Assembly (NCBI GenBank): GCA_001917905.1
Contig: MNEX01000162.1
Coordinates: 1-60,566, forward strand
Direction: 5' to 3'
DNA from: Acidobacteria bacterium 13_1_40CM_65_14
Lineage (GTDB): Bacteria; Acidobacteriota; Vicinamibacteria; Vicinamibacterales; CAVVIG01
Length of the DNA stretch: 60,566 nucleotides
Shown: positions 13,823 to 35,889 of the stretch, piece after piece
Position numbering within the stretch: the first letter of the stretch is position 1
Layout: every line of letters begins with the position of its first letter
Program-made: the position numbers and the translations under genes
The notes under the pieces: generated by a model
Seen by the model: only the letters and a program-made list of their open reading frames with translations
The model's database searches: none
What the model was told of the DNA's origin: nothing

Positions 13823-13824
13823 GC

Positions 13825-14865: not shown

Positions 14866-15040
14866 TCTGCCGCGAATCCGGCCCCAGCGCCTGCCACCGC
14901 TCGCTCGTTCGCTCGCGGCGTTGACTCGCGGCGGCCGTCCGCTCAGTCAACATTCTGCCGCGGATCCGGCCCCAGCGCCTGCCACCGCTCGCTCTTCGCT
15001 CGCGGCGTTGACTCGCGGCGGCTGTCCGCTCAGTCGACTC
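14832..15040. repeat. 87-88-bp tandem direct repeat, about 2.4 copies, spanning the murU-like 3' end, the spacer and the amgK-like 5' end
   Basis: Copies start with gttgactcgcggcggc at 14832, 14920 and 15007. Copies 1 and 2 are near-identical. Each unit begins with the palindrome gttgactcgcggcggccgtccgctcagtcaac. Confidence 0.93.
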
Positions 15041-16814: not shown

Positions 16815-16821
16815 GATTGAA

Positions 16822-16901
16822 CTCTCCACCACAGAGGACACGGAGGAAGAATCTCGTACGTTTTTCCCCGCGTGTCCTTCGTGGCCCCCGTGGTGATGAG
16901 G
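16822..16901. repeat. A-family hairpin repeat, copy A3
   Basis: ctctccaccacagaggacacggaggaagaatctcgtacgtttttccccgcgtgtccttcgtggcccccgtggtgatgagg. Its loop shares CGTACGTTTT with A1 and A2. Confidence 0.9.
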
Positions 16902-16909
16902 TTCAATGT

Positions 16910-18379
16910 TCATGTAACCCGCATCTTGTACGAGCAGCCACGGAGCGCCGGCGTGCCGACGCCTTTGCCGAAGATCAGAATCTTGTGTGTGCTCCCAAGA
17001 CCCCCAGGCATGATCAGCGTCTTGAGATTGCGGATTGCGGATTGCGGATTGGGGGTTGATTGCGGATTGCGGATTTCAGGGAACAGACCCATCAAAAAGT
17101 ACGTCTGGTCCAGGAATCCGAGCGTCTGCAATCCTTCTTCCTCCGCCGCTTGGCGCACGCTCGTGAAGTCGACGTGCGCGGTGATGTCCTGCTCTCCGGG
17201 CGACTGCAGCCAAGGCGGTGCCGCTGCAGATGATTTTCTATCGCTCGTGGGGCCCCACCCCCACTCGGGCACCCCAGCGCGCACAGACCGCGCGCCGGGG
17301 ACCCCGCCGCTGCGGCTCGACTCGCGACGCTCGCTCGCCGCGGCCGCAGGCGCTTCCGGTCCCGCGCTGCGATGGCCGCTGTAGCTCGTGAGCGTTCCGG
17401 CTGCGTGCGTCGGCGAGTACAGCTCGCGCGCTTCGTGACCGTAGTCAATCAGGATGATGAACCCGCGCCGCAGACGCCGGGCCGCGTCGCGGATCCACTC
17501 GACGGCGCGAAGATTGATCTCCACGCGCCACCCTGCTTCGAGCTCGATACCGAGGCGCGCCAGATATTCCGCAAGCTTTGGCGTGGACGGGGGCCCTTCG
17601 ATTACGGTGAGGCCATCATCATTCTTGACATCTCGCGGGGCCCCACCCTCTCGCACCGCGCCGGGGCCCCACCCCCGGCGCTGTTGCTCGGCGCCAGCGC
17701 CTCGCAACGGCTCAAGGCTGTCGCTCGCCGACGCCCTCGCGCCGTGGCGCTCGGGCGTATCCAGAACAGAGCGTCGCTGACTGATGACGTACGTCTCGCG
17801 CAGGCCCTCTTCACGCATCACCACCTGATGCACGGGCAATGCGTCGAGGAGCTCGTTGGCGATGACCACACCGTCGAACGAACAGGGGAATGACGCGTCG
17901 GAAGAGGCGAGTCGTTCGGCGACATCGGCGAGCGTCGCCCGCTGCGCCGCACGCGCCCCGGCGCTGGCTTCGACGAGATGGAGCTGGATGGTGTCGTAGA
18001 ACGCGCGATCGCGTTCCCGCGCGGCGCGGAGGATGTCGGCGCTGAGCCGGCCGTTGCCGGCGCCGGCCTCGACTAGGTCGAATGCAACCGCGGAGCGCGC
18101 AGAGCGCGCTGAGTTGTGATGGATTCTCTCGGCGTTCTCAGCGACCTCTGCGGTTGCTTGGAGGATGCTCGCGATCTCGGCGAGCTGGATTTCGAGGAGC
18201 TCGCCGAACAGCGGACCGACATCGACGCTGGTAAAAAAATCGCCCGCGCGGCCAGATCGCTGGTCCGCGCGGGCGTAGTAGCCGAGCTCGGGATGGTAGA
18301 GCGCGAGGTCCATGAACGCAGCCACGGTCATCGGGCCGCGTTCACGAATCAAATCTGCAATCTGCAATCCAATCTGCAA
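16910..18379 (-). CDS. MidA-like (DUF185) SAM-dependent methyltransferase carrying several repeat-encoded insertions
   Basis: ..LIRERGPMTVAAFMDLALYHPELGYYA.., FFTSVDVGPLFGELL, LVEAGAGNGRLSADIL and GFIILIDYGH are present. At 489 aa it is about 100 aa longer than I remember for this family. The start is a TTG inside a heptamer array. Confidence 0.8.
   Translation of the reverse strand: MQIGLQIADLIRERGPMTVAAFMDLALYHPELGYYARADQRSGRAGDFFTSVDVGPLFGELLEIQLAEIASILQATAEVAENAERIHHNSARSARSAVAFDLVEAGAGNGRLSADILRAARERDRAFYDTIQLHLVEASAGARAAQRATLADVAERLASSDASFPCSFDGVVIANELLDALPVHQVVMREEGLRETYVISQRRSVLDTPERHGARASASDSLEPLRGAGAEQQRRGWGPGAVREGGAPRDVKNDDGLTVIEGPPSTPKLAEYLARLGIELEAGWRVEINLRAVEWIRDAARRLRRGFIILIDYGHEARELYSPTHAAGTLTSYSGHRSAGPEAPAAAASERRESSRSGGVPGARSVRAGVPEWGWGPTSDRKSSAAAPPWLQSPGEQDITAHVDFTSVRQAAEEEGLQTLGFLDQTYFLMGLFPEIRNPQSTPNPQSAIRNLKTLIMPGGLGSTHKILIFGKGVGTPALRGCSYKMRVT
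17036..17086. repeat. 7-nt tandem repeat (GATTGCG)n inside the 3' part of the MidA-like gene
   Basis: gattgcggattgcggattgcggattgggggttgattgcggattgcggattt. It encodes ..EIRNPQSTPNPQSAIRN.. in frame. Confidence 0.92.
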
Positions 18380-18403
18380 TCTGAAATCTGCAATCTGAAA
18401 TCT
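18347..18403. repeat. 7-nt tandem repeat (AATCTGC)n over the 5' end of the MidA-like gene
   Basis: aatcaaatctgcaatctgcaatccaatctgcaatctgaaatctgcaatctgaaatct. The unit is the reverse complement of the 17036-17086 unit apart from one purine (GCAGATT versus GCGGATT). Confidence 0.92.
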
Positions 18404-18404: not shown

Positions 18405-19982
18405 CTATTCCTTCTTCACCGGGACGAAGATCTCCTGCTCGCCGCGCCACACACGGAGCTGCGCGAGATGGTTCGTCTGCACGCGATCGAGCTCGCGCTT
18501 CGCGTCCGCGGCGCTCGACACGGCCCGGCCGTTCACCGACAGGATGACGTCAGTCTGCCGCAGCGCGCCCGCCGCCGGACCATCCGGATCCACGTCCGTG
18601 ATGACCGCGCCCGTCTGACCGGACGGCATGCGCAGCCGCCGTGCCATGCTCGGCGTCACGTTGTCGAGCGTCAAGCCGAACCCGGTCGGCTCGTGCTGGT
18701 CCGTCTGGTTGTCGCCGCGATCGTTGTTGCCGCGTCCGCCGCGCGTCTGCTGCTGCTCCGCCTCGAGATCCAGTTCCTCGACGGTGACATGCATCGTTTT
18801 CTCCTGCCTGTTGCGCAGGATCTTGATCGGCACCGAGGTGCCCGGCTTGGTCGCGATCACCATCTTCACGAGCTCGTCCTGGGTCGCAATGGGCCGCCCG
18901 TTGTACTCGGTGATGACGTCGCCCGGCTCGATGCCCGCCTTCGCTGCCGGCCCGCCGGCCGGCACCTGAGCGACGAGCGCGCCTTTGCGATCCTTCAGTC
19001 CGAAGTCTTCGAACGCCTCACGCGGGACCGGCAGCACCGAGACGCCAATTCGCCCGCGTGTGATCTTGCCGACCCGCAACTGCGGCAGCAGCTCGCGAAC
19101 GGTGTTGATCGGCACGGCGAAGCCGATCCCGATGTTCCCCTCGCTGCGGGCGTTCGTGATGATGGCGGTGTTCATGCCGATCACTTCACCGCGGACATTG
19201 AGCAGCGGACCGCCGGAGTTGCCCGGGTTGATTGCGGCGTCGGTCTGAATCATGTCGTTGTTGCGATTGGGGACCGTCGTGAACGGCCTGCCGGTTGCGC
19301 TGACGACGCCGACGGTGACGGTGTGCGCGTAGCCGAATGGGTTGCCGATGGCCATCACCCAGTCGCCCGGCGCAATCTGCGACGAGTCCCCGAACTTCGC
19401 TTCGGGCAGCGCGCCTTTCGGTTTGTCGACGAGCTCGATCAGCGCGCTGTCGGTGAGCTGGTCGTGTCCGATCAATTTCGCGCTGTAAGGGGTGTCGTCA
19501 TCGCCGTAGAGGAACACCTCGATCTTGGTCGCCTCTTCCACGACGTGGTTGTTCGTGATGATGAACCCGTCCTTGCTGATGATGAAGCCGGTGCCGGCGG
19601 CCTGCGTTTTCGGTTCGCGCGGCTGGCGCCGTCCGCGGCCCTGGGGTTGATCGTCCTGCTGGCCGCCGCCGGGTCCGAAGAAGCGGCGGAACAAATCGTC
19701 CTGCGAGCCGCCGCCGCCGAAGAAATCGGTGAGCTCGTTGGCTTTCGCCTTCATCTCGGTCCGGATGTTGACCACCATCGGCGTCGATGCCTTGGCGATG
19801 TTGCGGAACGTGTCCGCGTTGACCGCCCCCGTGAGCGGCGCGCTGTTCATCGCCGGCACTGCGATCGTCTGGGCCGATGACGCCGGCGCCAGATCGAGAC
19901 GTGACGCGATGACCATGCCGACCGCCAGTGAGGCGACGATGGTCAGCAGGAAGTAGAAAAGCGTGGTCTTGCGGGTTGACAT
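18405..19982 (-). CDS. HtrA/DegP-family periplasmic serine protease with two PDZ domains
   Basis: TM/signal MSTRKTTLFYFLLTIVASLAVG, NNHVV (His), DSALIEL (Asp) and GNSGGPLLN (Ser), followed by two PDZ-like regions. The track start at 20012 adds 10 aa. Confidence 0.92.
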   Translation of the reverse strand: MSTRKTTLFYFLLTIVASLAVGMVIASRLDLAPASSAQTIAVPAMNSAPLTGAVNADTFRNIAKASTPMVVNIRTEMKAKANELTDFFGGGGSQDDLFRRFFGPGGGQQDDQPQGRGRRQPREPKTQAAGTGFIISKDGFIITNNHVVEEATKIEVFLYGDDDTPYSAKLIGHDQLTDSALIELVDKPKGALPEAKFGDSSQIAPGDWVMAIGNPFGYAHTVTVGVVSATGRPFTTVPNRNNDMIQTDAAINPGNSGGPLLNVRGEVIGMNTAIITNARSEGNIGIGFAVPINTVRELLPQLRVGKITRGRIGVSVLPVPREAFEDFGLKDRKGALVAQVPAGGPAAKAGIEPGDVITEYNGRPIATQDELVKMVIATKPGTSVPIKILRNRQEKTMHVTVEELDLEAEQQQTRGGRGNNDRGDNQTDQHEPTGFGLTLDNVTPSMARRLRMPSGQTGAVITDVDPDGPAAGALRQTDVILSVNGRAVSSAADAKRELDRVQTNHLAQLRVWRGEQEIFVPVKKE

Positions 19983-23715: not shown

Positions 23716-24069
23716 ATGAAGACAGTTGATAAAGGTCCGATGAGCGGCATCGACGCGCCGCGTCAGGTGACTGTGCGCACGCCCGCCGAGTTCGCGACGC
23801 TCTGGAAGTCGCACGCGGCCGACCGCAAGATGCCGGACGTCGACTTCACGAAGAACATGGTCGTGGGGATTTTCCTCGGCAGCCGGCCGACCGCCGGCTT
23901 CGGCGTGGAGATCGTCAGCGCGCAGCCCGAATCCGGCACGCTCCTGGTGAAGTACAAGGAGACGCGTCCGAGCCGCGACACGATCGCTGCGCAGGTCCTC
24001 ACCTCACCGTTCCACCTCGTCGCGGTGCCGAAGTTCGACGGCACGGTACGGTTCGAGAAAGTCCCGTAG
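23716..24069 (+). CDS. PrcB-like (protease complex subunit PrcB C-terminal domain) protein
   Basis: ..RTPAEFATLWKSHA..MVVGIFLGSRPTAGFGVEIVS..LLVKYKETRP.. matches the family pattern. The track ORF start (23533) lies in the repeat region, so Met 23716 is preferred. Confidence 0.65.
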   Translation: MKTVDKGPMSGIDAPRQVTVRTPAEFATLWKSHAADRKMPDVDFTKNMVVGIFLGSRPTAGFGVEIVSAQPESGTLLVKYKETRPSRDTIAAQVLTSPFHLVAVPKFDGTVRFEKVP

Positions 24070-24175
24070 CTCGAGTTCTGAGTTCTCAACCGACGTCGAA
24101 CAACGTGCAGCTGTGCGGGATGATTCAGCGACGAGATCGCGCGGTGTTCGTCTCGGGCCGTATGAGACTGTCTAT

Positions 24176-24213
24176 AAAGAAAAAGGCCGGCGGAGCGTTG
24201 GCTCCAGCCGGCC
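24176..24213 (-). terminator. rho-independent terminator downstream of the 24238-24774 gene
   Basis: The minus strand reads GGCCGGC-tggagccaacgctcc-GCCGGCC followed by TTTTTCTTT. Confidence 0.75.
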
Positions 24214-24237
24214 GTCCGAATTCCTAATTCCGAATTC

Positions 24238-24774
24238 TTACTTCTTCTTGGCCGCAGCCTTGCCCTTGCCCTTTGCCGGCGCCTTGGTCGCCGATGCATT
24301 TTTCGCCGCCGGCTCTTTCGGCGCGTCGAGCGACTTCACCGCGTGCGGCTTCGGGACGCCGCCGTTGGCGTGCGTGAACTGCAGCATGCTCTGCGCCATC
24401 TTCGGATTGACCGGCGTCCGGATCTCCATGTTCGCGACTTCACCCGGCTGCAGAAGCCCGTTGATGACGGCATCGCCGCCCGGAATCATGCCGCCGTCCT
24501 TGTCGTACCAGCTCTCCACGATCCGCAGGCGTCCAATCGGCGCGTTCGACGTGTTCTTCACCGTGATCTTGGTGACGAGCGTCGTGCCCTCGCGGCGCGT
24601 CGGCGTCTTCACGTAGTCGATCTGCGCGTCGCCCTTGATCGCAGGCGTGAACTTCTTGCCCGCCAGCACCGATTTCATCTCGGGCGCTTGCGGAGTCTGG
24701 GCGAAGACGGAGACGCCGACCAGGCTCGAGCCGGCGAGCGTCGCGGCGAGAACAACACGCGCGCGATGATTCAT
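24238..24774 (-). CDS. secreted hypothetical protein with a Lys/Ala-rich tail
   Basis: Signal peptide MNHRARVVLAATLAGSSLVGVSVFAQ, a roughly 120-aa globular part, and the C-terminus ..KEPAAKNASATKAPAKGKGKAAAKKK. GGAGG lies upstream of the ATG. No family recognised. Confidence 0.7.
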   Translation of the reverse strand: MNHRARVVLAATLAGSSLVGVSVFAQTPQAPEMKSVLAGKKFTPAIKGDAQIDYVKTPTRREGTTLVTKITVKNTSNAPIGRLRIVESWYDKDGGMIPGGDAVINGLLQPGEVANMEIRTPVNPKMAQSMLQFTHANGGVPKPHAVKSLDAPKEPAAKNASATKAPAKGKGKAAAKKK

Positions 24775-25356: not shown

Positions 25357-25776
25357 ATGGACCGACCCAGGCACGCGGGCCTCCGCCATCTCGCGCTGAA
25401 CGTGCAACGCCTCGACGAGATGAAAACGTTCTACGTCGACCTGCTCGGATTCGCGATCGAGTGGGAACCCGACGCCGACAACATTTATCTCTCGTCGGGG
25501 ATCGACAATCTGGCGCTGCACCGTTCGACGGCGCTTACGGCAGGTCGATCGGCTGAAGCCTCGTCCTCCAACGTTGGCGCGCTCGATCATCTCGGGTTGA
25601 TCGTGCGGTCCGCCGACGATGTGGATCATTGGGCGGAGTATCTCGAAGGCCACGGCGTGATCATCGACGCGAGGCCGAAAACACATCGCGACGGCGCGCG
25701 CTCGTGCTATTTCCGCGATCCGGACGGCAACCACGTCCAGATCATTCATCATCCGCCGGTATCGACGAAAGTTTGA
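25357..25776 (+). CDS. VOC/glyoxalase-family protein
   Basis: GLRHLALNVQRLDEMKTFYVDLLGF.., ..LDHLGLIV.., ..RSCYFRDPDGNHVQI. Confidence 0.85.
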   Translation: MDRPRHAGLRHLALNVQRLDEMKTFYVDLLGFAIEWEPDADNIYLSSGIDNLALHRSTALTAGRSAEASSSNVGALDHLGLIVRSADDVDHWAEYLEGHGVIIDARPKTHRDGARSCYFRDPDGNHVQIIHHPPVSTKV

Positions 25777-25845
25777 AGTACAAAGTACGAAGTCTGAAGT
25801 GAAATCCGCTCAGGCTCCGTACTTCAGACTTCCGACTTCAGACTT
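25774..25845. repeat. hairpin with (GTCTGAA)-type repeat arms between convergent VOC and glgP genes
   Basis: tgaagtacaaagtacgaagtctgaagtgaaatc ... gtacttcagacttccgacttcagactt. The VOC stop (25774-25776) lies in the left arm. The glgP stop (25824-25826) and its last codons (SLKSEV) lie in the right arm. Confidence 0.88.
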
Positions 25846-27980
25846 GTTCGCCTCTCCAGAGCGGGCGCGTACATGCGTTCCGTGTATTCCTTGACCATGC
25901 GCCGCGCTGAAAAGCGCGGCGCGACCGTTCTGATCGCTTCCTTGACGGTGGCGAGCCAGCGGTGCGGGACGTCGGACTTGTCGCGATCGTAGAACGCCGG
26001 CACCACTTCTTCTTCGAGCAGTCGATACAGCGCGTCGGCGTCGGCCGCATCGACCGCCTCGGTGTTGTCGCCGCTGACGCCGCCTTCGATCACCCAGCCG
26101 TTGCTGCCGGTGAAGCCCTCGGCCCACCAGCCGTCGCCGATGCTCAAGTGCGGCACGCCGTTGATCGCCGCCTTCATCCCGCTGGTGCCGCTCGCCTCGA
26201 GCGGCTTGCGCGGATTGTTGAGCCACACGTCGCAGCCCTGCACGAGGAAGTGCGCGACGTGGAGATCGTAGTCGTCGACGAACGCCACGCGTCCGCCGAA
26301 CATCGGATCGAGCGCGCGCTTGTAGACGCGCTGCAGATGGTGTTTACCGATGTCGTCGGCCGGATGCGATTTGCCGGCGAAGATGATCTGCACGGGACGG
26401 CCGGCCGCGTTCAGGATCCGCGCGAGCCGCTCGGGATCGTGGAACACGAGCTCCGGCCGCTTGTAGCCCGCGAAGCGGCGCGCGAAGCCGAGGGTCAGCG
26501 TGTCCGGCTCGAGCAGCGTCCCGGCGGCGACGACGCGCGGAATGCCGACGTGCTCTTCCATCCAGCGCTGGCGCGCGCGCTCGCGCACGAAGGTGAACAG
26601 ATACCGGCGCAGCGACTGCCGTACCTTCCACAGCTCCTCGTCGGGAATCGCCGGCACGGCGTCCCACAACGCGGCCTCGTCGTGATGCTCGATCCAGTCC
26701 TCGCCGAGGTACTTGCAGAACAGCTGCGAGAGCTCGCCCGCAATCCACGTCGGCACATGGACGCCGTTGGTCACCGACGTCACCGGACGTTCCGGTGCCG
26801 GCACGTCGGGCCACATCGGCGCGAACATGTTGCGCGTCACCTCGCCGTGGAGCCGGCTGACCGCGTTGGTCGCCCCGGCCGAGCGGAGGGCCAGCGCGGT
26901 CATGTTGAACTGCGGTCCGCCGCCGTTGTCGTACGCCCCGAGCGCGAGAAAGCGATCGCGGTGCGCGCCGATCGTGCCCCAGCAGCCGGCGAGATGTTTT
27001 TCCACGAGATGGAACGGAAACTGATCGTGCCCGGCCGGCACCGGCGTGTGCGTCGTGAAGATCGTCGTGCTGCGCACCTCTTCGAGCGCCTGGTCGAACG
27101 TCGAGCCGTGCTCGACGAGATCGCGGATCCGCTGCAGGATCACGAACGCGGCGTGGCCTTCGTTGAGATGGAAGACGCCGGGATCCGATCCCAGCGACTT
27201 CAGCGCGCGGACGCCGCCGATGCCGAGGATGATCTCCTGCTGGATGCGCGTCTCGCGATCGCCGCCGTACAGCCGCGCCGACAGCTCGCGATCCCACGGC
27301 GCGTTCTCTTCGAGATCCGTGTCGAGCATGTACAGCTTCACCCGCCCCACGCGCACGCGCCAGATCGCGACCAGCACCGAGCGATCGCCGAGCGGTACGG
27401 CGGTGATGCACGGCTTGCCGTCGGACCCGAGCGCCGGCTCGATCGGCGCGTCGGCCCAGTTCAGCGCTTCGTAGCTTTCTTCCTGCCACCCTTCTGCCGA
27501 TACGTGCTGATGGAAGTAGCCCTGCGGATACATGAACCCGATGCCGACGAGCGGCACGCCGAGATCGCTCGCCTCCTTGCAGTGATCGCCGGCAAGGACG
27601 CCGAGGCCGCCGGCGTAAATCGGCAGCGACTGATGGAGCGCGAACTCCGCCGAGAAGTACGCAATCGACTGTCCGCCGAGCTGAGGAAAGCTGCGCGACC
27701 ACCACGTGTTCCGCGCGCCGCGCGCATCGTCCAGCGCGGCGACCGCGCGGTCGTACACGCGGAGGAACTCAGGATCCTCAGCGGCCGCTTGCAGCTTCTC
27801 GGGCGCGATCGTCCACAGCATGCGCACCGGATTGTGCGCGGTCGCGCGCCACAGTGTGTAGTCGAGGCGCCGGAACACTTCGCGCGCCTCCGGGTGCCAG
27901 CTCCACCAGAGGTCGACGGCCAGTTCTTCCAGTCGGTTGATGCGTTCCGGGAGCGGCGGACGGCCGATGTATCGAGTCAT
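25824..27980 (-). CDS. glgP: alpha-glucan (glycogen) phosphorylase, GT35 'alpha-glucan family' type
   Basis: 718 aa with WWSWHPEA.., YFSAEFALHQSLPIYAGGLGVLAGDH and the PLP-lysine region EASGTSGMKAAINGV. Confidence 0.92.
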   Translation of the reverse strand: MTRYIGRPPLPERINRLEELAVDLWWSWHPEAREVFRRLDYTLWRATAHNPVRMLWTIAPEKLQAAAEDPEFLRVYDRAVAALDDARGARNTWWSRSFPQLGGQSIAYFSAEFALHQSLPIYAGGLGVLAGDHCKEASDLGVPLVGIGFMYPQGYFHQHVSAEGWQEESYEALNWADAPIEPALGSDGKPCITAVPLGDRSVLVAIWRVRVGRVKLYMLDTDLEENAPWDRELSARLYGGDRETRIQQEIILGIGGVRALKSLGSDPGVFHLNEGHAAFVILQRIRDLVEHGSTFDQALEEVRSTTIFTTHTPVPAGHDQFPFHLVEKHLAGCWGTIGAHRDRFLALGAYDNGGGPQFNMTALALRSAGATNAVSRLHGEVTRNMFAPMWPDVPAPERPVTSVTNGVHVPTWIAGELSQLFCKYLGEDWIEHHDEAALWDAVPAIPDEELWKVRQSLRRYLFTFVRERARQRWMEEHVGIPRVVAAGTLLEPDTLTLGFARRFAGYKRPELVFHDPERLARILNAAGRPVQIIFAGKSHPADDIGKHHLQRVYKRALDPMFGGRVAFVDDYDLHVAHFLVQGCDVWLNNPRKPLEASGTSGMKAAINGVPHLSIGDGWWAEGFTGSNGWVIEGGVSGDNTEAVDAADADALYRLLEEEVVPAFYDRDKSDVPHRWLATVKEAIRTVAPRFSARRMVKEYTERMYAPALERRTSLKSEV

Positions 27981-29005
27981 CGTTCAGAGCAGGCGCCGAC
28001 GAGCGCAGCGAATGTGGAGAGATCGATGTTGCCGCCGGACACGACGGCGACCACTTTGCCGGCGCCCGCGCGTCCGCTGAGTGCAGCGGCGATCGCGCAG
28101 CCGGCGGCGCCTTCCGCGATGATGCGTGCGCGCTCGGCGGCGAGCTTCATCGCGCGCGCGACCTCGTCGAGCGTGACGACGATCGATCCAGACAACTGCG
28201 AGAGCAGCGGCCACATGCTGGCCAGGACCGATTTCCCGCCGGCGCCGTCGACAAACGACGCCTTCCAATTGTCGAAGTACATGGGGCGTCCCGCAGCGAG
28301 GGAGACCGAGAGCGGCGCCGCCGTTTCCGGTTCGGCGGCGTAGACGCGCGTGTCCGGCTTCAGCTCGCGCACCGCCGCCGCGATCCCCGAGAGCAATCCG
28401 CCGCCGCCGAGCGGTGCGACGATGGCGTCGACGCCGGGGAGATCTTCGAGAATCTCCAGTCCGGCCGTCCCGTTGCCCGCGATGAAGCGATCGTCATCGA
28501 AGGGATGCACGAAGTGTCCGCGCATGCGATCCGACGCATGCGACTCGACGGTCTTCCACGCGTCGTCGTAGGTCGTCCGGACGATCGTCGCGCCGAGCCG
28601 CTCGATCGCGTCCACCTTGGTTTGCGGCGCGGTGTCCATCACCATCACCGAGCAGGCCGCGCCGACCTTGCGCGCAGCGTAGGCGACGCCTTGCGCCGCG
28701 TTGCCCGCGCTGACCGTCCATACGCCGTCCTTCAGCTCGTCGCGCGTGAGCTGGCGCACGACGTTGTAGGCGCCGCGGATCTTGAACGAGCCGATCGGCT
28801 GCAGCACCTCGAGCTTCAGGTACACCTCGGGACCGGCGGGGAGCTCGATTCGAATCAGCGGCGTTCGGACGGCGGCGCCGTACACAGCCGTGGCGGCGTC
28901 TCGGATGGCGGCGAGCGGGATGTGGCGGCCGGAGATCGTCGTCGGCAAGACGGTCGATGGTAGTCGCCTCAGCTCAGGCGGGTCAATGCTCCGCGCCCGC
29001 CTCAT
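27977..29005 (-). CDS. PLP-dependent serine/threonine dehydratase family enzyme
   Basis: LQPIGSFKIRGAYN (PLP Lys) and GGGGLLSG. Its start overlaps the glgP stop region (ATGA-type junction). Confidence 0.85.
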   Translation of the reverse strand: MRRARSIDPPELRRLPSTVLPTTISGRHIPLAAIRDAATAVYGAAVRTPLIRIELPAGPEVYLKLEVLQPIGSFKIRGAYNVVRQLTRDELKDGVWTVSAGNAAQGVAYAARKVGAACSVMVMDTAPQTKVDAIERLGATIVRTTYDDAWKTVESHASDRMRGHFVHPFDDDRFIAGNGTAGLEILEDLPGVDAIVAPLGGGGLLSGIAAAVRELKPDTRVYAAEPETAAPLSVSLAAGRPMYFDNWKASFVDGAGGKSVLASMWPLLSQLSGSIVVTLDEVARAMKLAAERARIIAEGAAGCAIAAALSGRAGAGKVVAVVSGGNIDLSTFAALVGACSER

Positions 29006-29012
29006 CCGTAAT

Positions 29013-29107
29013 GGTCATTGGTCATTGGTCATTGGTCATTGGTCGTTGGTCGTTGGTCGTTGGTCATTGGTCATTGGTCATTGGTCATTGGTCATTAGTC
29101 GTTGGTC
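29013..29107. repeat. 7-nt microsatellite (GGTCATT/GGTCGTT), 13 units plus a partial unit
   Basis: Counted unit by unit from 29013. It contains the stop and last 7 codons of the 29085-29531 gene and ends 8 nt before the start codon of the dehydratase gene (29005). Confidence 0.97.
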
Positions 29108-29531
29108 GGAAGCGCTCTTCGATGAACGCGATCAGTTCATCGAGTGACCCGTAGCCGAAGGTCGTGCACGCGCCGTCGCAGTTGCCGACGATGAGGCGCG
29201 AGATGGCGTGGCGGCGAGTGCGGTCGTAGAGGAGCACCACCTGCTGACCGGTGACCGGCGAGCGACCGAGCACATAACCGACCTCGAAGCCCACGCCGTA
29301 TGTGGATCCCGACGCTTCGGCGACGAGCACGTCACATTGCGAGAGCCAGTCGAGATCGCGACGATAGACGTCCTCCTCGGTCAGCTTCGACTCCGCCTCG
29401 TTGACGTCGGCGGCGAGCAGGTGCGTCGTCAACACCCGATGACCGAGCTCGTGCAGGCGCTCCGAGATCGCGCGACCTGCGGCCACGCCGCCGCGATCGC
29501 CGCGAACCGTGCACGCGAGATAGATCGTCAC
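29085..29531 (-). CDS. nucleoside 2-deoxyribosyltransferase-like / DNPH1(Rcl)-like protein
   Basis: MTIYLACTVRGDRGG.., ..DLDWLSQCDVLVAEASGSTYGVGFEVGY.. matches the family pattern as I remember it. Confidence 0.65.
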   Translation of the reverse strand: MTIYLACTVRGDRGGVAAGRAISERLHELGHRVLTTHLLAADVNEAESKLTEEDVYRRDLDWLSQCDVLVAEASGSTYGVGFEVGYVLGRSPVTGQQVVLLYDRTRRHAISRLIVGNCDGACTTFGYGSLDELIAFIEERFRPTTNDQ

Positions 29532-29541
29532 ACGTCGCGAG

Positions 29542-30729
29542 TCATTTCTTCAGGAGCTCGCGAACCTTCTCGATGGGGATGGCCTGCGCGGTGCCGACGC
29601 GTGACGTCGTCGTGGTCGCCTGGAACAGCGAGTTGTACACCGCTTCTTCGGTCGCCTCGAGCGCCGCTTCGAAGAGGGGAGACATCGCGTCGGGCGGCAG
29701 CACCTGCCGCGCGCGCGGCGTCGTCTCGTCGAACCGGCTGCGCATCTCCAGCGAGGTCGAGAACGCGATCGCGAAATCGCCGCTGCCATTGCTGTAGGCC
29801 GATCCCGTGCGGGCGAGGCCGAATACGGCGCGTCGCGCGAGGCGCTGCAGATCGCGCGCGTCGCACGGCGCATCGGTCGCGACGACGAGCATGCAGGACC
29901 CATGAGCTGACGCCGGGTCCACAGGACCCGGCCTACGTACGTCCGCAGACCGCCGCGACGGCGGTTGCAGAAGTTTGAAGATCGGAACGCCGCTGATCGT
30001 GAGGTTGCCGCCGAAGTTCGTTTGGGCCAGCACGCCGACCGTGTATGCCCCGACGCGCCCTGAGCCTGTCGAAGGGTCGACTTTTCGCGACGAAGTCCCG
30101 ATGCCGCCTTTCCATCCGTAGCAGATCGTTCCGGTGCCCGCGCCGACCGCGCCTTCCGTCACCGCTCCGCTCTTCGCGTTTCTGATCGCGTCGATGACGT
30201 GCTCGCGCGAGACGTGCAGTCCGCGGATGTCGTTCAAGCCACCGTCGTTGGTTTCACCCACGACCGCGTTCACCGATCGCACCTGCTCGTTGCCCGGTTG
30301 TGCCAGGGTGTAGCGGACGACCGCGTCCATCGCCGCGCCGACACTCAACGTGTTGGTCAGCACGATCGGCGTTTCGATCGTGCCGAGCTCGTTCACCTGG
30401 GTCGATCCCGCGAGCTTGCCGAACGCGTTGCCGACGAAGACGGCGCCCGCCACCTTGTCCTGAAACACGTTGCCGCCATGCGGAACGATCGCCGTCACGC
30501 CCGTCCGCACGTCGTCGCCCTCGATGAGCGTCGTGTGACCGACGCGCACGCCGTCGACATCGGTGATCGCGTTGAGCGGTCCCGGCTGATACACGCCCGG
30601 CGCGATGCCGAGATCCCGGGCGCGCGGCCGGCTTTGGCCCACGACGGCCACGCCGCTCTGTGCAGAAATGAGCACGACGAGGAGTCCAAGCCACTTTCGG
30701 CCAGCGTGAGGCTTACATGGCTCTTGCAT
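29542..30729 (-). CDS. P1/S58-family (DmpA-like) aminopeptidase
   Basis: Signal-like N-terminus, GPLNAITDVDGVRVGHTT.., GVTAIVP, VVGETNDGGLNDIRG, GAGTGTICYGWKGGIGTSS and VVATDAP. Met 30729 is preferred over the track start at 30765. Confidence 0.85.
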   Translation of the reverse strand: MQEPCKPHAGRKWLGLLVVLISAQSGVAVVGQSRPRARDLGIAPGVYQPGPLNAITDVDGVRVGHTTLIEGDDVRTGVTAIVPHGGNVFQDKVAGAVFVGNAFGKLAGSTQVNELGTIETPIVLTNTLSVGAAMDAVVRYTLAQPGNEQVRSVNAVVGETNDGGLNDIRGLHVSREHVIDAIRNAKSGAVTEGAVGAGTGTICYGWKGGIGTSSRKVDPSTGSGRVGAYTVGVLAQTNFGGNLTISGVPIFKLLQPPSRRSADVRRPGPVDPASAHGSCMLVVATDAPCDARDLQRLARRAVFGLARTGSAYSNGSGDFAIAFSTSLEMRSRFDETTPRARQVLPPDAMSPLFEAALEATEEAVYNSLFQATTTTSRVGTAQAIPIEKVRELLKK

Positions 30730-30844
30730 GACGGAATTGTACTGGTATGATGCGCGACAGCTCAAAGCTACTCAGTCCCCTAATGGTCCATACCGTCGTC
30801 TGCCCCACGACGACGCGGGTTGGTGTGTTGTCGGCGGAGGGTGC

Positions 30845-33334
30845 GTGAGGCGCACCCGGGTCTTCCGTCCGTACATCATCTGGTCCGCCGTTTTGCTGGT
30901 TGCCGTCACCACGACGGCGCTCATTCGCGCCCAGTACATCCCTCCGCCGCGGACGGCCGCGCCCGGGACGATGAGTGACGGCTCGACGCTATTACCCAAC
31001 GGATGGCGGCTCGGCCCTGTCGGGAAACATCTTCCCCTCAGCACGCTGCCGCTCAACGCCGTCGTCTCGCCCGATGGCCGCCATGCGGTCATCACGAACA
31101 ACGGTCTCGCGAAACCGTCGCTGAACGTCGTCGACATCAACGCGTGGACGATCAAGACGACGACGCCCGTGGACCACACATGGCTCGGCCTCGCGTTTCA
31201 TCCCGACGGCACGAAGCTGTACGCGAGCGGCGCGGGGCAGAACAACGTCCAGGAATTCACGTACGCCGACGGCGTCGTGACGCGCGTGCGCACCTTCGCG
31301 CTCCCGGCGTACACCGGCGACACGATGGTCGGCGGTCTGGCGGTCAGCCCGAACGGGCGCGCGCTGTTCGCCACGCGCGTCTTCGCGATGACGATCTCGC
31401 GGATCGATCTCACGACCGGTCAGGTGACGCATTCGGCGTCGCTTCCCGCCGAACCGTATTCGTGCGTGCTGTCGCCCGACGGACGGATGCTGTACGTCTC
31501 GCTGTGGGGCGGCGCGCGCGTGCGCGTGTACGACGCCGACTCGCTGTTCCTGCTCAACGAATGGGCGTCGGGCGAGCATCCGAATGCGATGGCGATCTCG
31601 AGCGACGGCAAGCGGCTGTTCGTCGCGTGCGCGAGCAGCGCCGCGGTCTGGACGTACGACACGTTCGCCGGTGAACCGATCGAGCAGATCTCGACGAGCC
31701 TCTATCCGCAGGCGCCGCCGACGGCGACGCCCAATTCTGTCGCGCTGTCGCCCGACGGCCGCACGCTGATCGCCGCCAACGCCGACAACAACGCAGTCGC
31801 GGTGGTCGACGTGAGCAACCCGGCGCTGAGCTTCGTCGAAGGGTTCATTCCGACCGGCTGGTATCCGACGTCCGCGGTGTTCACGAAAGACGGCAAGCAG
31901 ATTCTGATTCTGAACGGCAAGGGCCTGACGCCCGCGCCGAACATGACCAACAGCGGCATGGAGCGCCGCATGCTCGGTGCGGTGTCGCTCGTCGCCACGC
32001 CCGATCGCGTGACGCTCGCCGACTACACGCGCCGCGTGATGTCGCTGTCGCCCTACACCGATGCGATTCGGCTGCATCCGAACGTGCCGATCGGATCGCC
32101 GATTCCGCGCACCGTCGGCGGCGCCTCGCCGATCAAGCACGTCTTCTACGTCATTCGCGAGAACCGCACCTACGATCAGGTGCTCGGCGATCTGACGGAA
32201 GGGAACGGCGATCCCAAGCTGACCCTCTTCGGCCGCGAGATCACGCCGAACGCGCACGCGCTGGCGCAGAACTTCGTGGTGTTCGACAACTTCTTCGTCG
32301 ATGCCGACGTCAGCTACAACGGCCACTCGTATTCGACGGCGGCGTACGCCACCGATGTCGTCGAGAAGATGTGGCAGGCGATGTACGCGCGTGGCGGCAT
32401 TCCGTATCTGTCCGAAGGCGGCGGCCTGCTGCGCAACCCGTTCGGCAACATCTCGGCGCCGCCGGGCGGCTACATCTGGGACTACGCGCGCCGCAGCGAC
32501 GTCAGCGTCCGCAGCTACGGCGAGTTCGTCCATCACACGTATCGCGGCCCCGGCGCGAACCCCGACGTCATCGCCGTCGAGGCGGTGCCCGGTCTGAAGG
32601 GACTCGTCGCGCCGGCCTTCGCCGGCTGGGATCTCGAGATCACCGACAACAAGCGCATCGACAACTGGCAGCAGGAGTTCCGGCAGTTCGAGCGGGACGG
32701 CACGCTGCCGCAGCTGTCGATCATCCGGCTGCCCAACGATCACACGGCCGGCACGAGGCCGGGCGCTCCGACACCGCGCGCGATGATGGCGGACAACGAC
32801 GTCGCGCTCGGCCGGCTGGTGGAGACGATCTCGAACAGCGTCTACTGGAAAGACGCCGCGATCTTCGCCGTCGAGGACGATGCGCAGGCCGGACCGGATC
32901 ATGTGGACTCGCACCGCTCGGTGCTGCTCGTCGCGAGTCCGTTCGCCAAGCGCATCAGCGTCGATCACACGTTCTACTCGACGGCGAGCGTGCTGCGGAC
33001 GATCGAGCTCATCCTGGGTCTCACGCCGATGAGCCAGTACGACGCGGCGGCGACGCCGATGCACGCGGCGTTCACCGGGACGAGCAACCTCGCCGCGTAT
33101 CGCCGATTGGATGCGCGCGTATCGCTCGACGAGAAGAATCCGACCAACGCGTTCGGCGCGATCGCGTCGCTGCAGATGAACTTCTCGGAAGCCGATCGGA
33201 CGCCCGAGGTGCTGCTGAACGAGATCATCTGGCGCTCGGTGAAGGGCGCCCATTCGCCGATGCCGCCGCCCCGGCGGAGTCTCTTCATCACGCCGGCGTC
33301 GCGCGCCGCGGATGATGACGACGATGAGCGCTAG
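30845..33334 (+). CDS. secreted fusion protein: YncE/YVTN-type beta-propeller plus phosphoesterase (phospholipase C / AcpA-like) domain
   Basis: Repeated ..SPDGR..Y(A/V).. propeller blades, then IKHVFYVIRENRTYDQVLGD, NFFVDADVSYNGH and IIRLPNDHTAG. A GTG at 30845 gives a signal-peptide start; the track ORF begins at 30728. Confidence 0.8.
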   Translation: MRRTRVFRPYIIWSAVLLVAVTTTALIRAQYIPPPRTAAPGTMSDGSTLLPNGWRLGPVGKHLPLSTLPLNAVVSPDGRHAVITNNGLAKPSLNVVDINAWTIKTTTPVDHTWLGLAFHPDGTKLYASGAGQNNVQEFTYADGVVTRVRTFALPAYTGDTMVGGLAVSPNGRALFATRVFAMTISRIDLTTGQVTHSASLPAEPYSCVLSPDGRMLYVSLWGGARVRVYDADSLFLLNEWASGEHPNAMAISSDGKRLFVACASSAAVWTYDTFAGEPIEQISTSLYPQAPPTATPNSVALSPDGRTLIAANADNNAVAVVDVSNPALSFVEGFIPTGWYPTSAVFTKDGKQILILNGKGLTPAPNMTNSGMERRMLGAVSLVATPDRVTLADYTRRVMSLSPYTDAIRLHPNVPIGSPIPRTVGGASPIKHVFYVIRENRTYDQVLGDLTEGNGDPKLTLFGREITPNAHALAQNFVVFDNFFVDADVSYNGHSYSTAAYATDVVEKMWQAMYARGGIPYLSEGGGLLRNPFGNISAPPGGYIWDYARRSDVSVRSYGEFVHHTYRGPGANPDVIAVEAVPGLKGLVAPAFAGWDLEITDNKRIDNWQQEFRQFERDGTLPQLSIIRLPNDHTAGTRPGAPTPRAMMADNDVALGRLVETISNSVYWKDAAIFAVEDDAQAGPDHVDSHRSVLLVASPFAKRISVDHTFYSTASVLRTIELILGLTPMSQYDAAATPMHAAFTGTSNLAAYRRLDARVSLDEKNPTNAFGAIASLQMNFSEADRTPEVLLNEIIWRSVKGAHSPMPPPRRSLFITPASRAADDDDDER

Positions 33335-33339
33335 ACGCT

Positions 33340-33435
33340 GAATCGGGTAATTGGATAATCGGGTAATCTGGTAATTGGATTGCTCGATTGACCAATCCGC
33401 TTACCCGATCACCCGATTACCCGATTACTCGATTC
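33340..33435. repeat. hairpin with (GGGTAATYG)-type repeat arms
   Basis: gaatcgggtaattggataatcgggtaatctggtaattggattg-ctcgattga-ccaatccgcttacccgatcacccgattacccgattactcgattc. Same family as 58197-58312. There is a half-copy at about 36570-36600. Confidence 0.9.
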
Positions 33436-35889
33436 GGCGCCGCGTTCGCGCTCGTCGTGTTCGCGGCTGTGACCGTCAGCTGTGGCCGCGCGCCCGCGCC
33501 GCCCTATCCGCTCGCGTTCAGCATTCAGGTCAGCTCGCCGCGAGCTCTCGAAAGCTCGCGCGAGATCGCGATTCCGATCGCCGTCACCAACACCGGTCAA
33601 CGCGCGTGGGATCCCGCACGCGTGCACCTGTCGTATCACTGGCTCTGGATCGTGCCGCGCGAGCTCGCGTCGCGGTCGCGGTGGAACGCGCCGTATCACG
33701 ATGGCATCAGGACCGAGCTGTCCGAGGCGGTCGCGCCGGCTGAACGTGTCGTCGTGCAGGGCCGCGTGCTCGCGCCATCGGTGCCCGGTGTGTACTGGCT
33801 GCAGTGGGACATGGTGGAGGAAGGCGTCACCTGGTTCGCGCAAGTCTCGCGCCGCCAGCCGCTCGCGCTGGTCTTCGTCTTTCCGCCGCTGGCCTGGATT
33901 CTCGCGCCGCTGCCGCTCCTCATCGCAATCGCTGGGATCGTTCTGGTCCGGCTGAAGCCGGACGCCACCGAGGCACCGACGGTGGTGTCCGGCTTCAGCT
34001 CTCTGGTGGCGTCCGGCTCTAGCCGGACCAGGTGGTTCTCGTCATCCGCCGACATCGCGTGGTGCGTCGCGTGCCTCTTCGCCAAACCGTTCGTCGTGTT
34101 CCACGACGCGCTCCTCGAGCCGACGGCGGTCGCGTACTGGCTGACCCTCGCCGCGGCGATCGTGCCGGTGACGATCATCGCGCTCGTGTTCCCGCGCCGC
34201 GTGCGCGCCTGGCTGCTGCTCGCGCTCGGCATCTTCGGCTCGCTCGTCATCCTCGCCGACGTCGTCTACTACCGCTTCTTCGGCGACGTGCTGTCCACGC
34301 CGGCGCTGCTCGGCGTGCATCAGACCGGACATGTCTGGGGATCGATCCGCAGTCTGTCCACGCCCGGACTCGTGTGGCTGATCGCCGATTGGCCGTTCGC
34401 CGTCTGGCTGACGATCCGGCTGTCGCGGCTGAAGCAGCCGTCGGCGCCGTTTCGAAGACGCGCGCTCGTTGCCGCAGCGACGCTCGTGATCCTCGCCGCG
34501 TCGGGCAGTGTGCTCTCCGTGCGCCGGGCGATCGCCTCGACGCCGCTCGATCAAATGTTCCGGGACCGCGCGGTCGTCGAGCAGCTTGGCCCGTTCGGAT
34601 TTCATGCGTACGACACGTGGAATTACGTGAGGAGCACCTGGCTGCGCGTCCCGGTGAGCGACGCGCAGCTCGACGACGCCGTCGCGTGGTTCGAGGCGCG
34701 CGCGCCTCTCCGGGCAGGCACGGGGTCGAGTTTCGGCGCCGCACGCGGGAAGAACGTTATCGTGGTGCAGGTGGAGTCGCTGCAGGACTTCGCCGTGGAC
34801 TTCCAGGTCGGCAATCAGGAGGTGATGCCGCACCTGCGGCGGTGGATCGACGACAGCGCGCGGTTCACGACCGTGACCGATCAAACCAACGAAGGGCGCA
34901 CGTCCGACGCCGAGCTCACGACGATGGCGTCGCTGCTGCCGCTCGATCATGGCGCGGCCGCCTTCCGGTACCCGGGCAATCGCTACGTCGCGCTGCCGCG
35001 CGTGCTGGCCGATCGCGGCTATCGGACGCTCTCAGCGGTCGCGTTCGAGCCGGGCTTCTGGAATCGGCAGGTGATGCATCCGGCGTACGGCTTTCAGCAC
35101 ACGCTGTTCGAGCTGGATTTTCGGCTGACGGAGCAGATCGGCTGGGGGCTGAACGATCGCGACTTCCTCCAGCAAATGCTGCCGCATCTGACGAAGCTGC
35201 AGCGGCCGTTTCTCGCGTGGCTCATCACGTTGTCGTTGCATCATCCGTTCGAGGACTTCCCTGCGGCGCACAAAGTCCTGAAGCTGGGGGCGCTCGAGGG
35301 CACGTCGTTCGGCAACTACCTGCACACCATGCGCTTCTTCGACGAGGCGCTCGAGGAGTTCAACGTCGCGCTCGCGAAGAACGGTCTGCTCGACGACAGC
35401 GTGATCGTCGTGTTCGGTGATCACGACGCGGGCTTCGCGCGCGACGAGTCGCTCACGACGCTTCTCGGCATTCGCCCGGACGACACGGATTGGGCGCTGA
35501 CCGATCGTGTGCCGCTGTTCATCCGCGCGCCTGGGCTCCGCGGCGTCCGCGCGATGCCGGCCGGGCAGACCGACGTGGCGCCGACGCTCCTCGCCCTCGT
35601 CGGTGTCGATGCGGCGCGGCTGCCGTACGTGGGGCGCAATCTTCTCGGCACGGACGATTCAGGGCCGGTGCCGCGCCCGTACGGCGACTGGCTCGACGGT
35701 CAGCATCTCTTTCTCACGCGCGGCGCCGATCACGTGTGCATCGACCTCGCACGCCGGCTCGCGGTCGATCGGGAGAGCTGCCGGTTGGCAGACGAACGAG
35801 CGCGCCGCGACCGCGACGTGTCGCGGCTCGTCGTCGTCGACGATCTGCAGAGGCGCATCTGGGAGCGGTTGACTACGGTCGTGAAATAA
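33388..35889 (+). CDS. LTA-synthase/sulfatase-family membrane protein (MdoB/LtaS-like) with an N-terminal extracytoplasmic module
   Basis: Multi-TM middle region, then NVIVVQVESLQDF.., TNEGRTSDAE and WLITLSLHHPFE. The start (TTG 33388) lies inside the hairpin repeat and is uncertain. Confidence 0.8.
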   Translation: MTNPLTRSPDYPITRFGAAFALVVFAAVTVSCGRAPAPPYPLAFSIQVSSPRALESSREIAIPIAVTNTGQRAWDPARVHLSYHWLWIVPRELASRSRWNAPYHDGIRTELSEAVAPAERVVVQGRVLAPSVPGVYWLQWDMVEEGVTWFAQVSRRQPLALVFVFPPLAWILAPLPLLIAIAGIVLVRLKPDATEAPTVVSGFSSLVASGSSRTRWFSSSADIAWCVACLFAKPFVVFHDALLEPTAVAYWLTLAAAIVPVTIIALVFPRRVRAWLLLALGIFGSLVILADVVYYRFFGDVLSTPALLGVHQTGHVWGSIRSLSTPGLVWLIADWPFAVWLTIRLSRLKQPSAPFRRRALVAAATLVILAASGSVLSVRRAIASTPLDQMFRDRAVVEQLGPFGFHAYDTWNYVRSTWLRVPVSDAQLDDAVAWFEARAPLRAGTGSSFGAARGKNVIVVQVESLQDFAVDFQVGNQEVMPHLRRWIDDSARFTTVTDQTNEGRTSDAELTTMASLLPLDHGAAAFRYPGNRYVALPRVLADRGYRTLSAVAFEPGFWNRQVMHPAYGFQHTLFELDFRLTEQIGWGLNDRDFLQQMLPHLTKLQRPFLAWLITLSLHHPFEDFPAAHKVLKLGALEGTSFGNYLHTMRFFDEALEEFNVALAKNGLLDDSVIVVFGDHDAGFARDESLTTLLGIRPDDTDWALTDRVPLFIRAPGLRGVRAMPAGQTDVAPTLLALVGVDAARLPYVGRNLLGTDDSGPVPRPYGDWLDGQHLFLTRGADHVCIDLARRLAVDRESCRLADERARRDRDVSRLVVVDDLQRRIWERLTTVVK

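Follow-up and report, generated by a model that had tools for sequence, protein, structure and literature searches.

The stretch of DNA analysed here (the window) is the 60,566-nucleotide contig MNEX01000162.1 of Acidobacteria bacterium 13_1_40CM_65_14, a member of the Vicinamibacterales (Acidobacteriota subdivision 6, about 65% GC). Between two convergent genes, coding for a glyoxalase/VOC-family protein and for the alpha-glucan phosphorylase GlgP, it carries at positions 25774-25845 a hairpin whose arms are arrays of degenerate heptamers. In this hairpin and its relatives the arms are tandem 7- or 8-mers, and the arrays fill the spacer between the genes as far as the adjacent stop or start codon, in some cases running beyond it. 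The element is best read as an inverted pair of heptamer microsatellite arrays, i.e. a simple sequence repeat (SSR) in hairpin form, similar to the STRRs (short repetitive sequences in tandem) of cyanobacteria, that would be driven by replication slippage and encroach on gene ends. We give this reading a probability of about 0.55. The element belongs to a known but unexplained kind; distinctive here are the diversity of the units, their density and the documented rewriting of protein termini. If the sampled density holds, the focal element would be one of several hundred such hairpins in each Vicinamibacterales genome.

The hairpin between the VOC gene and glgP

The focal element consists of TGAAGTACAAAGTACGAAGTCTGAAGT, 20 nt and ACTTCAGACTTCCGACTTCAGACTT. 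An inverted-repeat search delimited two arms of 25 nt each (25776-25800 and 25821-25845), 80% complementary and separated by a 20-nt spacer. Each arm holds three to four degenerate GAAGTCT heptamers, those of one arm facing those of the other, and Tandem Repeats Finder (TRF) described the right arm as 3.6 copies of a period-7 unit. A sequence-only reading of the window had proposed a simple-repeat hairpin at this place, and folding of both strands bears it out. Predicted RNA folding energies are -33.2 kcal/mol (z -4.6) for the + strand and -33.8 kcal/mol (z -3.5) for the - strand, none of 200 dinucleotide shuffles being as good on either strand; the z-scores of the DNA folds are -3.8 and -2.4. 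Several pairing registers are open to the repeats, so that the minimum-energy structure accounts for no more than 6-10% of the ensemble. The repeat unit is not a chance feature, since eight two-unit matches of AAGTCTGAAGTCTG (at most 2 mismatches) were found in the window for 0.18 expected, all within 4985-5057 and 25783-25845. Independent metagenomes also match the window sequence across the focal element. No Rfam covariance model matched the window at the gathering threshold, and at E <= 1 only spurious matches of microRNA models were obtained, on a 12-mer array (50223-50356).

Protein termini encoded by the repeats

The VOC gene (25357-25776, + strand, Pfam PF00903) ends with a TGA codon (25774-25776) at the foot of the left arm. 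Its tail is native, HHPPVSTKV* in the window corresponding to HHPPISxKx* in relatives. The situation differs for glgP (25824-27980, - strand, DUF3417 and Phosphorylase domains), whose product ends in ..RTSLKSEV*: the right focal arm encodes its final six codons (SLKSEV) as well as its TGA stop (25824-25826). Orthologues end in ..APALERKAVAK* (L001), ..ERKAVTRS* (L009) or ..ARKAIVRS* (L030), the window protein in ..APALERRTSLKSEV*. The window protein departs from its orthologues exactly where the repeat starts, and the conserved KAVxx* tail is replaced.

A GGGTAATY hairpin (58196-58312) separates a second convergent pair. The NtrC-like regulator (56745-58214, + strand) ends in ..LKNRVIG*, its TAA (58212-58214) being located in the left arm; the tail of the STK-TPR gene (58302-60527, - strand) is ..RKRIG*, and its stop (58302-58304) lies in the right arm. 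Orthologues of the NtrC-like protein end in ..GIDL(K/Q)AER(S/T)xx*, a tail that differs from the hairpin-encoded NRVIG* of the window. The closest relative for this protein, L200 (93% identical), has no hairpin at the site. At the third pair, the stop codons of the open reading frame (ORF) starting at 50399 (50741-50743) and of the facing ORF 50811-51284(-) (50811-50813) both lie in the arms of the palindrome 50737-50825. The latter ORF, previously labelled a lipoprotein gene, had no Pfam match.

Stop codons or last codons are therefore found inside arms at all three convergent pairs, as the sequence-only reading had stated, with the VOC stop sitting at the left foot. Overrunning arrays replace five to six codons and the unit itself supplies the stop, TGA in GAAGTCTGA and TAA in GGGTAATC. 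The further claim of the sequence-only reading, that such elements define C-termini, is supported by the comparison of orthologues: for GlgP and the NtrC-like protein, both cases that could be compared, a conserved tail has been replaced by a repeat-coded one, and the C-terminus is set by the repeat. Because the VOC tail is native but the other two tails are replaced, the arrays can be said to abut native stops and sometimes to overrun them.

As a separate observation, the synteny between L200 and the window stops at the hairpin 58196-58312 (L200 from 5365 onward). L200 has a different downstream gene and no STK-TPR gene within 4 kb, and the hairpin may mark a rearrangement or insertion junction.

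Related hairpins and lone arrays in the window

The other unit-array hairpins that had been listed for the window (4983-5073, 33336-33439, 58196-58312, 5363-5441 and 2067-2135) were all confirmed as long hairpins, with z-scores from -2.9 to -11.2. Three of them lie within the co-directional cluster pnp-rpsO-truB-(ORF 3516-4541)-rbfA-DUF503-infB, where they span whole spacers, reaching from the stop of one gene to no more than 3 nt from the start of the following one. A second GAAGTCT hairpin (4983-5073; 6.1 and 4.0 heptamer copies at 4985-5071 according to TRF) takes up the entire intergenic stretch from the DUF503 stop (5070-5072) to the rbfA start (4978-4980); the two genes are on the - strand. 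The hairpin of ACGAAAC(C) units (5363-5441) occupies the spacer from the infB stop (5442-5444) to the DUF503 start (5369), and that of GGAACTY/AGTTCTN units (2067-2135) the rpsO-pnp spacer, 3 nt from the pnp ATG (2062-2064).

Units of 8 nt build the GGGTAATC hairpin (33336-33439), which has arms of 47-50 nt and begins 2 nt past the stop of gene 30728-33334; its orthologue in L001 (5045-5148) has an identical unit. Matches of GGGTAATCGGGTAATC number 14 in the window for 0.13 expected and are located at 33345-33430, 36568-36591 and 58201-58307. The second of these places corresponds to a lone array of the GGGTAATC family (36573-36596, TRF). Two other arrays without partner were observed at gene ends: three heptamers, GAATTCG on the strand of the gene, at 24215-24237, where they separate a canonical terminator from the stop of gene 24238-24774(-), and 13.7 copies of TGGTCAT at 29012-29107, at the 3' end of gene 29085-29531(-). 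The proposal of one shared design for all repeat families of the window holds for the heptamer and 8-mer families. It extends only partly to the C-family, whose arms consist of about three 9-mers each within a longer non-repetitive palindrome and which is a different class from the unit-array hairpins.

Two side observations concern these loci. Many relatives carry a conserved (A/G)AAGCTGGCGCAGCTCA followed by ..AGAAAGA.. in the rpsO-pnp spacer just upstream of the pnp ATG (L300, L298, L309, L311-L313, L317, L322, L323, L327, L329 and L334). This motif, a possible pnp leader element, is missing from the window, where the hairpin adjoins the ATG. Besides, the window contains 565 nt (28987-29552) that are extra relative to L001, including gene 29085-29531(-) and the TGGTCAT array, both missing from L001. 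The gene belongs to the nucleoside 2-deoxyribosyltransferase family and its 3' end runs into the array, whose words reach 40-70 times the flank depth in metagenomes.

Census of inverted array pairs

A census was performed on TRF arrays in the window and 80 related glgP loci (81 sequences, 1.57 Mb). It recovered 68 inverted array pairs, distributed over 40 of the 81 sequences and made of 55 distinct units. The period was 7 in 48 pairs, 8 in 12, 9 in seven and 10 in one. The method is strict and undercounts, since it recovers only four of about nine pairs in the window. A second, independent sample of 0.6 Mb yielded 31 further pairs; the design is general and not a set of isolated coincidences. 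Among period-7 arrays, 74 of 141 had an inverted partner within 150 nt, compared with 10 direct partners, five in the reversed control and nine in the complement control. For period 8 the inverted partner was present in 20 of 47 arrays (reversed and complement controls, 0/47 and 7/47), and no array of period 11-12 had one in the census. Arrays have 2 to 26 copies of the unit, and the two arms of a hairpin can be highly unequal. The arms are poorer in GC than the loci overall (56% vs 66%).

The density of pairs depends on the lineage. It amounts to 42-52 per Mb in loci from Vicinamibacterales vs 3 per Mb in loci of similar GC from Bryobacterales/Terriglobia, i.e. it is more than 10 times higher in Vicinamibacterales than in other Acidobacteriota. 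The AAGTCTG unit is not confined to this order: perfect AAGTCTG x3 was detected in Acidobacteriota, Planctomycetota, Cyanobacteria, Myxococcota, Chloroflexota, Elusimicrobia and others, and on at least 7 contigs of a single gp6 metagenome-assembled genome (MAG). The architecture was found in hundreds of independent MAGs, long-read assemblies included.

The arrays are closely tied to the 3' ends of genes. Stop codon and array are separated by a median of 7 nt, the distance falling within -10 to +30 nt for 62 of 77 gene ends. The hairpins (n = 67) lie between convergent genes in 20 cases, co-directional in 37 and divergent in 10; the baseline spacers of at least 60 nt (n = 588) divide into 108, 331 and 149, respectively, which by our own arithmetic gives a convergent-to-divergent odds ratio of about 2.8. 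The arms also have a polarity. The left (+ strand) arm was the purine-rich one in 57 of the 68 hairpins (62% vs 39% purine, p = 1e-8), equally in convergent, co-directional and divergent contexts, and AAGTCTG arrays across phyla have their inverted partner downstream in 37 cases and upstream in five. By the symmetry of this excess, the 5' arm of either transcript is purine- or G-rich. In the second census the polarity was only 18/31, so that the two sets differ (Fisher p = 0.01) and combine to 75/99, counts that include related genomes and are thus non-independent. The orientation of lone arrays relative to the upstream gene (23 vs 13) showed a weak trend that was not significant. The idea that heptamers might serve to place a stop codon in all three frames was rejected, the stop triplet of the unit reading outward in 16/68 hairpins and inward in 22/68.

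Turnover, unit-number variation and spread into coding DNA

The hairpins turn over quickly at orthologous sites. The closest match to the window, MAG contig DASYQZ010000008.1, is syntenic with it and shows 91-93% amino-acid identity. Downstream of orthologous glgP genes, hairpins are built from other units (AGCTGAA in L001, AGAATTA in L002, CAACTCC in L019, TCAATGC in L021, GAATGCT in L029); some genomes have lone arrays there and many have none. The rpsO-pnp spacer of close relatives is likewise found in several states: a 17-nt spacer containing GGTTCTGG and no hairpin (L282 and L288, S15 95% identical), a lone degenerate array (L280), and full hairpins with differing units. Five of about seven array sites occupy the same position in the window and in L001, and the units have drifted at about 2/7 positions (GAAGTCT/GAAAGCT at glgP, GAATTCG/GAAGTCT near 24220), the unit of the GGGTAATC hairpin being kept.

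Unit-number variants were also observed. The right focal arm is longer by 28 nt (four units) behind 25817 in one contig of run X4, and the 8-mer array has 8 additional nt at 36583 or 36588 in soil metagenome contigs of three runs. Arm words reach 5-10 times the depth of the flanks in soil metagenomes, and one genome may use a given unit more than once, GAAGTCT being found at two and GGGTAATC at three loci of the window.

Arrays are not restricted to spacers. A GATTGCG x7.6 array (17026-17075) lies in frame within the Methyltransf_28 gene 16910-18379(-), in place of a variable loop; the methyltransferase of L001 has a different loop of 30 residues. An AATCTGC x7.7 array (18352-18403), the inverse of the 17026 unit, covers the 5' end of the same gene. 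Turnover, unit-number variants and invasion of coding sequence together fit slippage-driven, concertedly evolving arrays that spread where selection allows.

Two further observations were made on repeats in coding DNA. At the 5' site of the methyltransferase gene, L001 has a GGGATTY hairpin with the ATG in the loop and the first residues coded by the right arm. The comparison with L001 concerns its positions 19411-19486. The self-complementary 12-mer GTCAGACTGACG (= AGTCTGACCGTC) occurs in frame in two unrelated genes, 8.6 times at 2992-3094 in truB, as (SDRQ/SDRE)n between the TruB_N and TruB_C_2 domains, and 13.7 times at 50226-50389 in the N-terminal region of a PIG-L deacetylase, as (VRLA/VRLT)n. 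It is a repeat family at the nucleotide level that invades coding sequence.

Comparison with known systems

The sequence-only reading took the hairpins for an undescribed class of element. This is not the case, as inverted pairs of heptamer arrays have already been reported from Xanthomonas (Rehm et al. 2015, PLoS One, PMC4692102) and from Geobacter metallireducens (Aklujkar et al. 2009, BMC Microbiol, PMC2700814); literature searches returned no report of such repeats for Acidobacteria. In Xanthomonas, intergenic GGGAATC heptamers occur in arrays of 2-26 units, 70-75 'convergent' pairs of plus- and minus-strand arrays per genome being able to form stem-loops. The arrays lie 28 nt from the end of the upstream ORF vs 160 nt from the next ORF, and their lengths vary among related species (PMC4692102). 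Tandem heptamers, inverted pairing, closeness to the upstream 3' end and length variation are all shared with the hairpins described here, and the 'convergent' arrangement is consistent with the polarity observed here. In contrast to the single G-rich Xanthomonas unit, which was read as a G-quadruplex former, dozens of unrelated units are used here, most of them unable to form quadruplexes. Overlap with stop codons and rewriting of protein tails, present here, are not reported for Xanthomonas (PMC4692102).

The 'global regulator binding sites' of G. metallireducens (classes 1-3) are 3-5 tandem repeats of 7-9 nt, GTTGCTYN, TCTCCGTS[Y] and MTYCTGA, paired on opposite strands around a variable spacer (PMC2700814). 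MTYCTGA differs from AGTCTGA at one position, and TCTCCGT resembles the GGACACGGAG family of the window. The sites were read, without test, as IHF/HU sites; they number 8-24 pairs per class and were linked neither to gene 3' ends nor to C-termini (PMC2700814).

Cyanobacterial STRRs are tandem heptamers of several unit types, intergenic and lineage-specific as here (Mazel et al. 1990; Vioque 1997, NAR 25:3471). They were mostly described as direct arrays for fingerprinting, inverted pairing not being treated as a rule. The RNase P RNA of heterocyst-formers reportedly has a helix P12 whose two arms are lengthened by STRRs. In Nostoc and Prochloraceae loci, too, AAGTCTG arrays accompanied by an inverted partner were found. 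The abundant intergenic TAACTGA heptamers of Beggiatoaceae and cyanobacteria have a patchy phylogenetic spread, and some arrays overlap the ends of upstream ORFs; they differ in using one unit, in lying upstream of starts and in having a single inverted case among 170 sets (MacGregor 2015, PMC4679880). The only experimentally dissected heptamer-arm hairpin found in the literature is that of the Haemophilus influenzae hmw 5' untranslated region, in which one arm of a long, imperfect RNA hairpin is an array of heptamers. RNase III cleaves this hairpin, and both transcription and processing are required for changes in SSR copy number (NAR 2025, PMC12721329). It differs from the present elements in its 5' location, in its other arm, which is a G-rich non-repeat, and in being a single phase-variable locus rather than a genome-wide class.

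Repetitive extragenic palindromic (REP) sequences, the bacterial interspersed mosaic elements (BIMEs) they form and Rho-independent terminators are likewise intergenic hairpins at gene 3' ends. None of them has tandem-repeat arms: REPs are palindromes of 20-40 nt with a fixed sequence and a GTAG/CGTC tag, and terminators combine a short GC stem with a U-tract. REPs stabilise upstream mRNA and, near a stop codon, can affect translation termination. The fixed 20-40-nt palindrome, GTAG/CGTC head and near-identical copies of REP/BIME elements were not found, nor were the terminal inverted repeats, target-site duplication and conserved interior of MITEs (miniature transposable elements of the inverted-repeat type). 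The features of an inverted-pair heptameric SSR/STRR were all found, namely tandem units, an opposite-strand partner, unit-number variation at the level of contigs and a position near the upstream 3' end. The (A)n/(T)n 'palindromic microsatellite' elements of fungal mitochondria were considered and set aside as not comparable.

Function and origin of the hairpins

The hairpins had been proposed to act as bidirectional terminators. This remains unproven and is in part unlikely. In favor of dedicated bidirectional intrinsic terminators, for which tandem repeats would merely be one route to a long stem, one may cite their position directly after stop codons (median 7 nt), their enrichment at convergent spacers (20/67 vs 108/588) and depletion at divergent ones (10/67 vs 149/588), and the strength of the hairpins on both strands. 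For other high-GC bacteria, terminators consisting of a hairpin that lacks a U-tract have been suggested. A mild excess of T is seen in the 12 nt past the stem (0.26 vs 0.17 overall in the census), at least 5 T being present on only 25 of 136 sides. However, no U-tract is found at most elements nor at the focal one, where the tails are GUUCGCCUCU (+) and CAAACUUUCGUCG (-). The focal stem of about 25 bp with its 20-nt loop is unlike the short GC-rich stem (about 5-14 bp) and 3-8-nt loop of intrinsic terminators, as are the stems of 25-47 bp in general. More than half of the hairpins (37/67) lie between co-directional genes, and three are in the infB-DUF503-rbfA-truB-rpsO-pnp cluster, touching the next start. 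Moreover, about half of the arrays have no inverted partner, and close relatives lack the hairpin at the same site. A true terminator also occurs beside a heptamer array: the Lys/Ala-rich gene 24238-24774(-) is followed by the canonical intrinsic terminator CGGCCGGC..GCCGGCC + TTTTTCTTT (window 24068-24283), with three heptamers wedged between its stop and the terminator, and L001 has AGTCTGA x3 there (13744-13825). A simple promoter/terminator scan proved uninformative: it gave six terminator-like sites for 11 expected, and missed this obvious canonical one. Overall we consider it unlikely, though worth keeping in view, that the hairpins are dedicated terminators.

Two other functions or origins were considered. 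In favor of DNA-level binding sites for a nucleoid-associated or global regulator acting as a symmetric oligomer, along the lines of the published IHF/HU hypothesis (Aklujkar et al. 2009, PMC2700814), are the dyad symmetry with its preferred polarity, the recurrence of a few units at many loci and the lack of a strand-specific RNA signature. Yet 55 units in 68 hairpins are too many for one or a few proteins, the units drift between orthologous sites, copy number varies from 2 to 26 with arms at times very unequal, and the location is at 3' ends and not at promoters, so that such a role is very improbable. Non-autonomous mobile elements of MITE or REP/BIME type, mobilized in trans by a transposase and inserted at gene ends, would account for the same unit at several loci, for the 5-10-fold depth of arm words and for filled and empty sites among close relatives; the TCTCCACCAC..GGACACGGAGG family and the C-family of the window do resemble dispersed elements with fixed termini and loops. 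The GAAGTCT copies, and likewise the GGGTAATC copies, share the unit only, their loops, lengths and ends being different. No target-site duplication, fixed terminus or GTAG/CGTC tag was seen when copies and filled/empty orthologous sites were compared, and the three states of the rpsO-pnp spacer (17 nt with GGTTCTGG, lone degenerate array, full hairpin) are consistent with growth in situ. Mobility of this kind is accordingly very improbable for the unit-array hairpins. As for chance resemblance or an artefact of assembly, repeats can be misassembled from short reads and contigs do break at the elements, but counts far above shuffled expectation, the same architecture in hundreds of independent MAGs including long-read ones and the reproduction of the focal sequence by independent metagenomes effectively refute it.

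Slippage-driven inverted arrays could arise and act as follows. Arrays would grow and shrink by replication slippage, and the two arms would stay similar in their unit consensus, either through inter-arm copying (template switching of the fold-back or quasi-palindrome kind) or because pairing is selected for. Array growth may be limited only by purifying selection acting on the genes at either side. In the mRNAs of both convergent genes the element would fold as a long, register-slippery stem-loop, most likely serving as a 3'-end barrier or processing site, i.e. a block to 3' exonucleases or a substrate of RNase III, rather than as a canonical intrinsic terminator. The RNase III option is raised by the predicted stems of 25-47 bp, within the range of its substrates (about 20 bp or more of double-stranded RNA); together with the H. 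influenzae hmw case, stem length suggests that the stems may be processed by this enzyme.

Several points weigh against this account. The purine-rich 5' arm (57/68 vs 18/31 between the two sets) and the preference for 7 and 8 nt are unaccounted for. Pure in-situ slippage is insufficient, because several loci of a genome can share one unit. A strand-specific G.U signature of selection at the RNA level was looked for and not seen (62 sense vs 51 antisense wobbles, p = 0.35). Variant units are not mirrored between the arms (mean z 0.18; 3/47 at p <= 0.05), so that there is no fine-scale compensation and the coupling of the arms follows only from their shared unit consensus. The unit-number variants come from assembled contigs of repeats, in which assembly errors are possible. 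Finally, the metatranscriptome runs containing the window hold only short fragments of conserved genes, too sparse to show 3' ends or read-through.

Some of these difficulties would be lifted by an active lineage-specific process that writes and homogenises inverted 7-8-nt arrays at gene ends, in Vicinamibacterales and in other heptamer-rich lineages. A link with transcription or RNase III is conceivable, H. influenzae hmw giving a hint of it, as is a dedicated enzyme. The process would account for the sharp 7/8-nt preference, the polarity of the purine-rich 5' arm on both strands, the recurrence of units at unlinked loci and the more than 10-fold density gap between classes of the phylum. We consider it quite unlikely; if true, the hairpins would form an evolvable layer across the genome, adjusting mRNA 3' ends and steadily recasting the termini and loops of proteins.

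Vicinamibacteria rank among the most abundant bacteria of soils and have hardly been studied genetically. If the sampled density holds genome-wide, each genome would contain hundreds of hairpins and about a thousand 7/8-mer arrays. In practice, the repeats break short-read assemblies, shift annotated stops and starts, and create lineage-specific tails and loops, and gene callers and orthology pipelines should allow for repeat-coded termini. With dozens of units and many orthologous sites, they form a rich natural data set for asking why heptamers are over-represented in some bacteria and what inverted arrays do, arm polarity and the 7/8-nt preference being concrete testable handles.

Other palindromes and repeats of the window

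The C-family (GCAACCGCGGAG..GCAGAG..) is represented by two palindromes with three 9-mers per arm (38699-38820 and 38919-39047), by a copy at 18084-18157 and by the short palindrome 50737-50825 that contains both convergent stops. The depth of its words is 50-200 times that of the flanks in four soil metagenomes, and these are therefore very high-copy dispersed elements.

Another palindromic family, TCTCCACCAC..GGACACGGAGG..loop with GUACG..CCTCCGTGTCC..GTGGTGGAGA, has about five copies in 60 kb (11622-11707, 13735-13826, 16800-16905, 39716-39809 and 48018-48084). The copy at 16800 is missing at the syntenic site of L001, a filled/empty pair, and the family looks like a REP/MITE-type element or a structured RNA. 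The palindrome CTGGTCCGGCTGAAGCCGGACGCCACC / GGTGGCGTCCGGCTCTAGCCGGACCAG (33943-34031) is also missing at the syntenic L001 site; a similar sequence occurs 3' of the NtrC-like gene in L201, after 5377. Two further repeats lie at 14825-15035 and 16367-16441: an 88-bp unit, present in 2.4 copies of 96% identity, and a CCCGCCYGT-type 9-mer array, whose orthologous site in L001 (21051-21170) is a hairpin with 9-mer arms.

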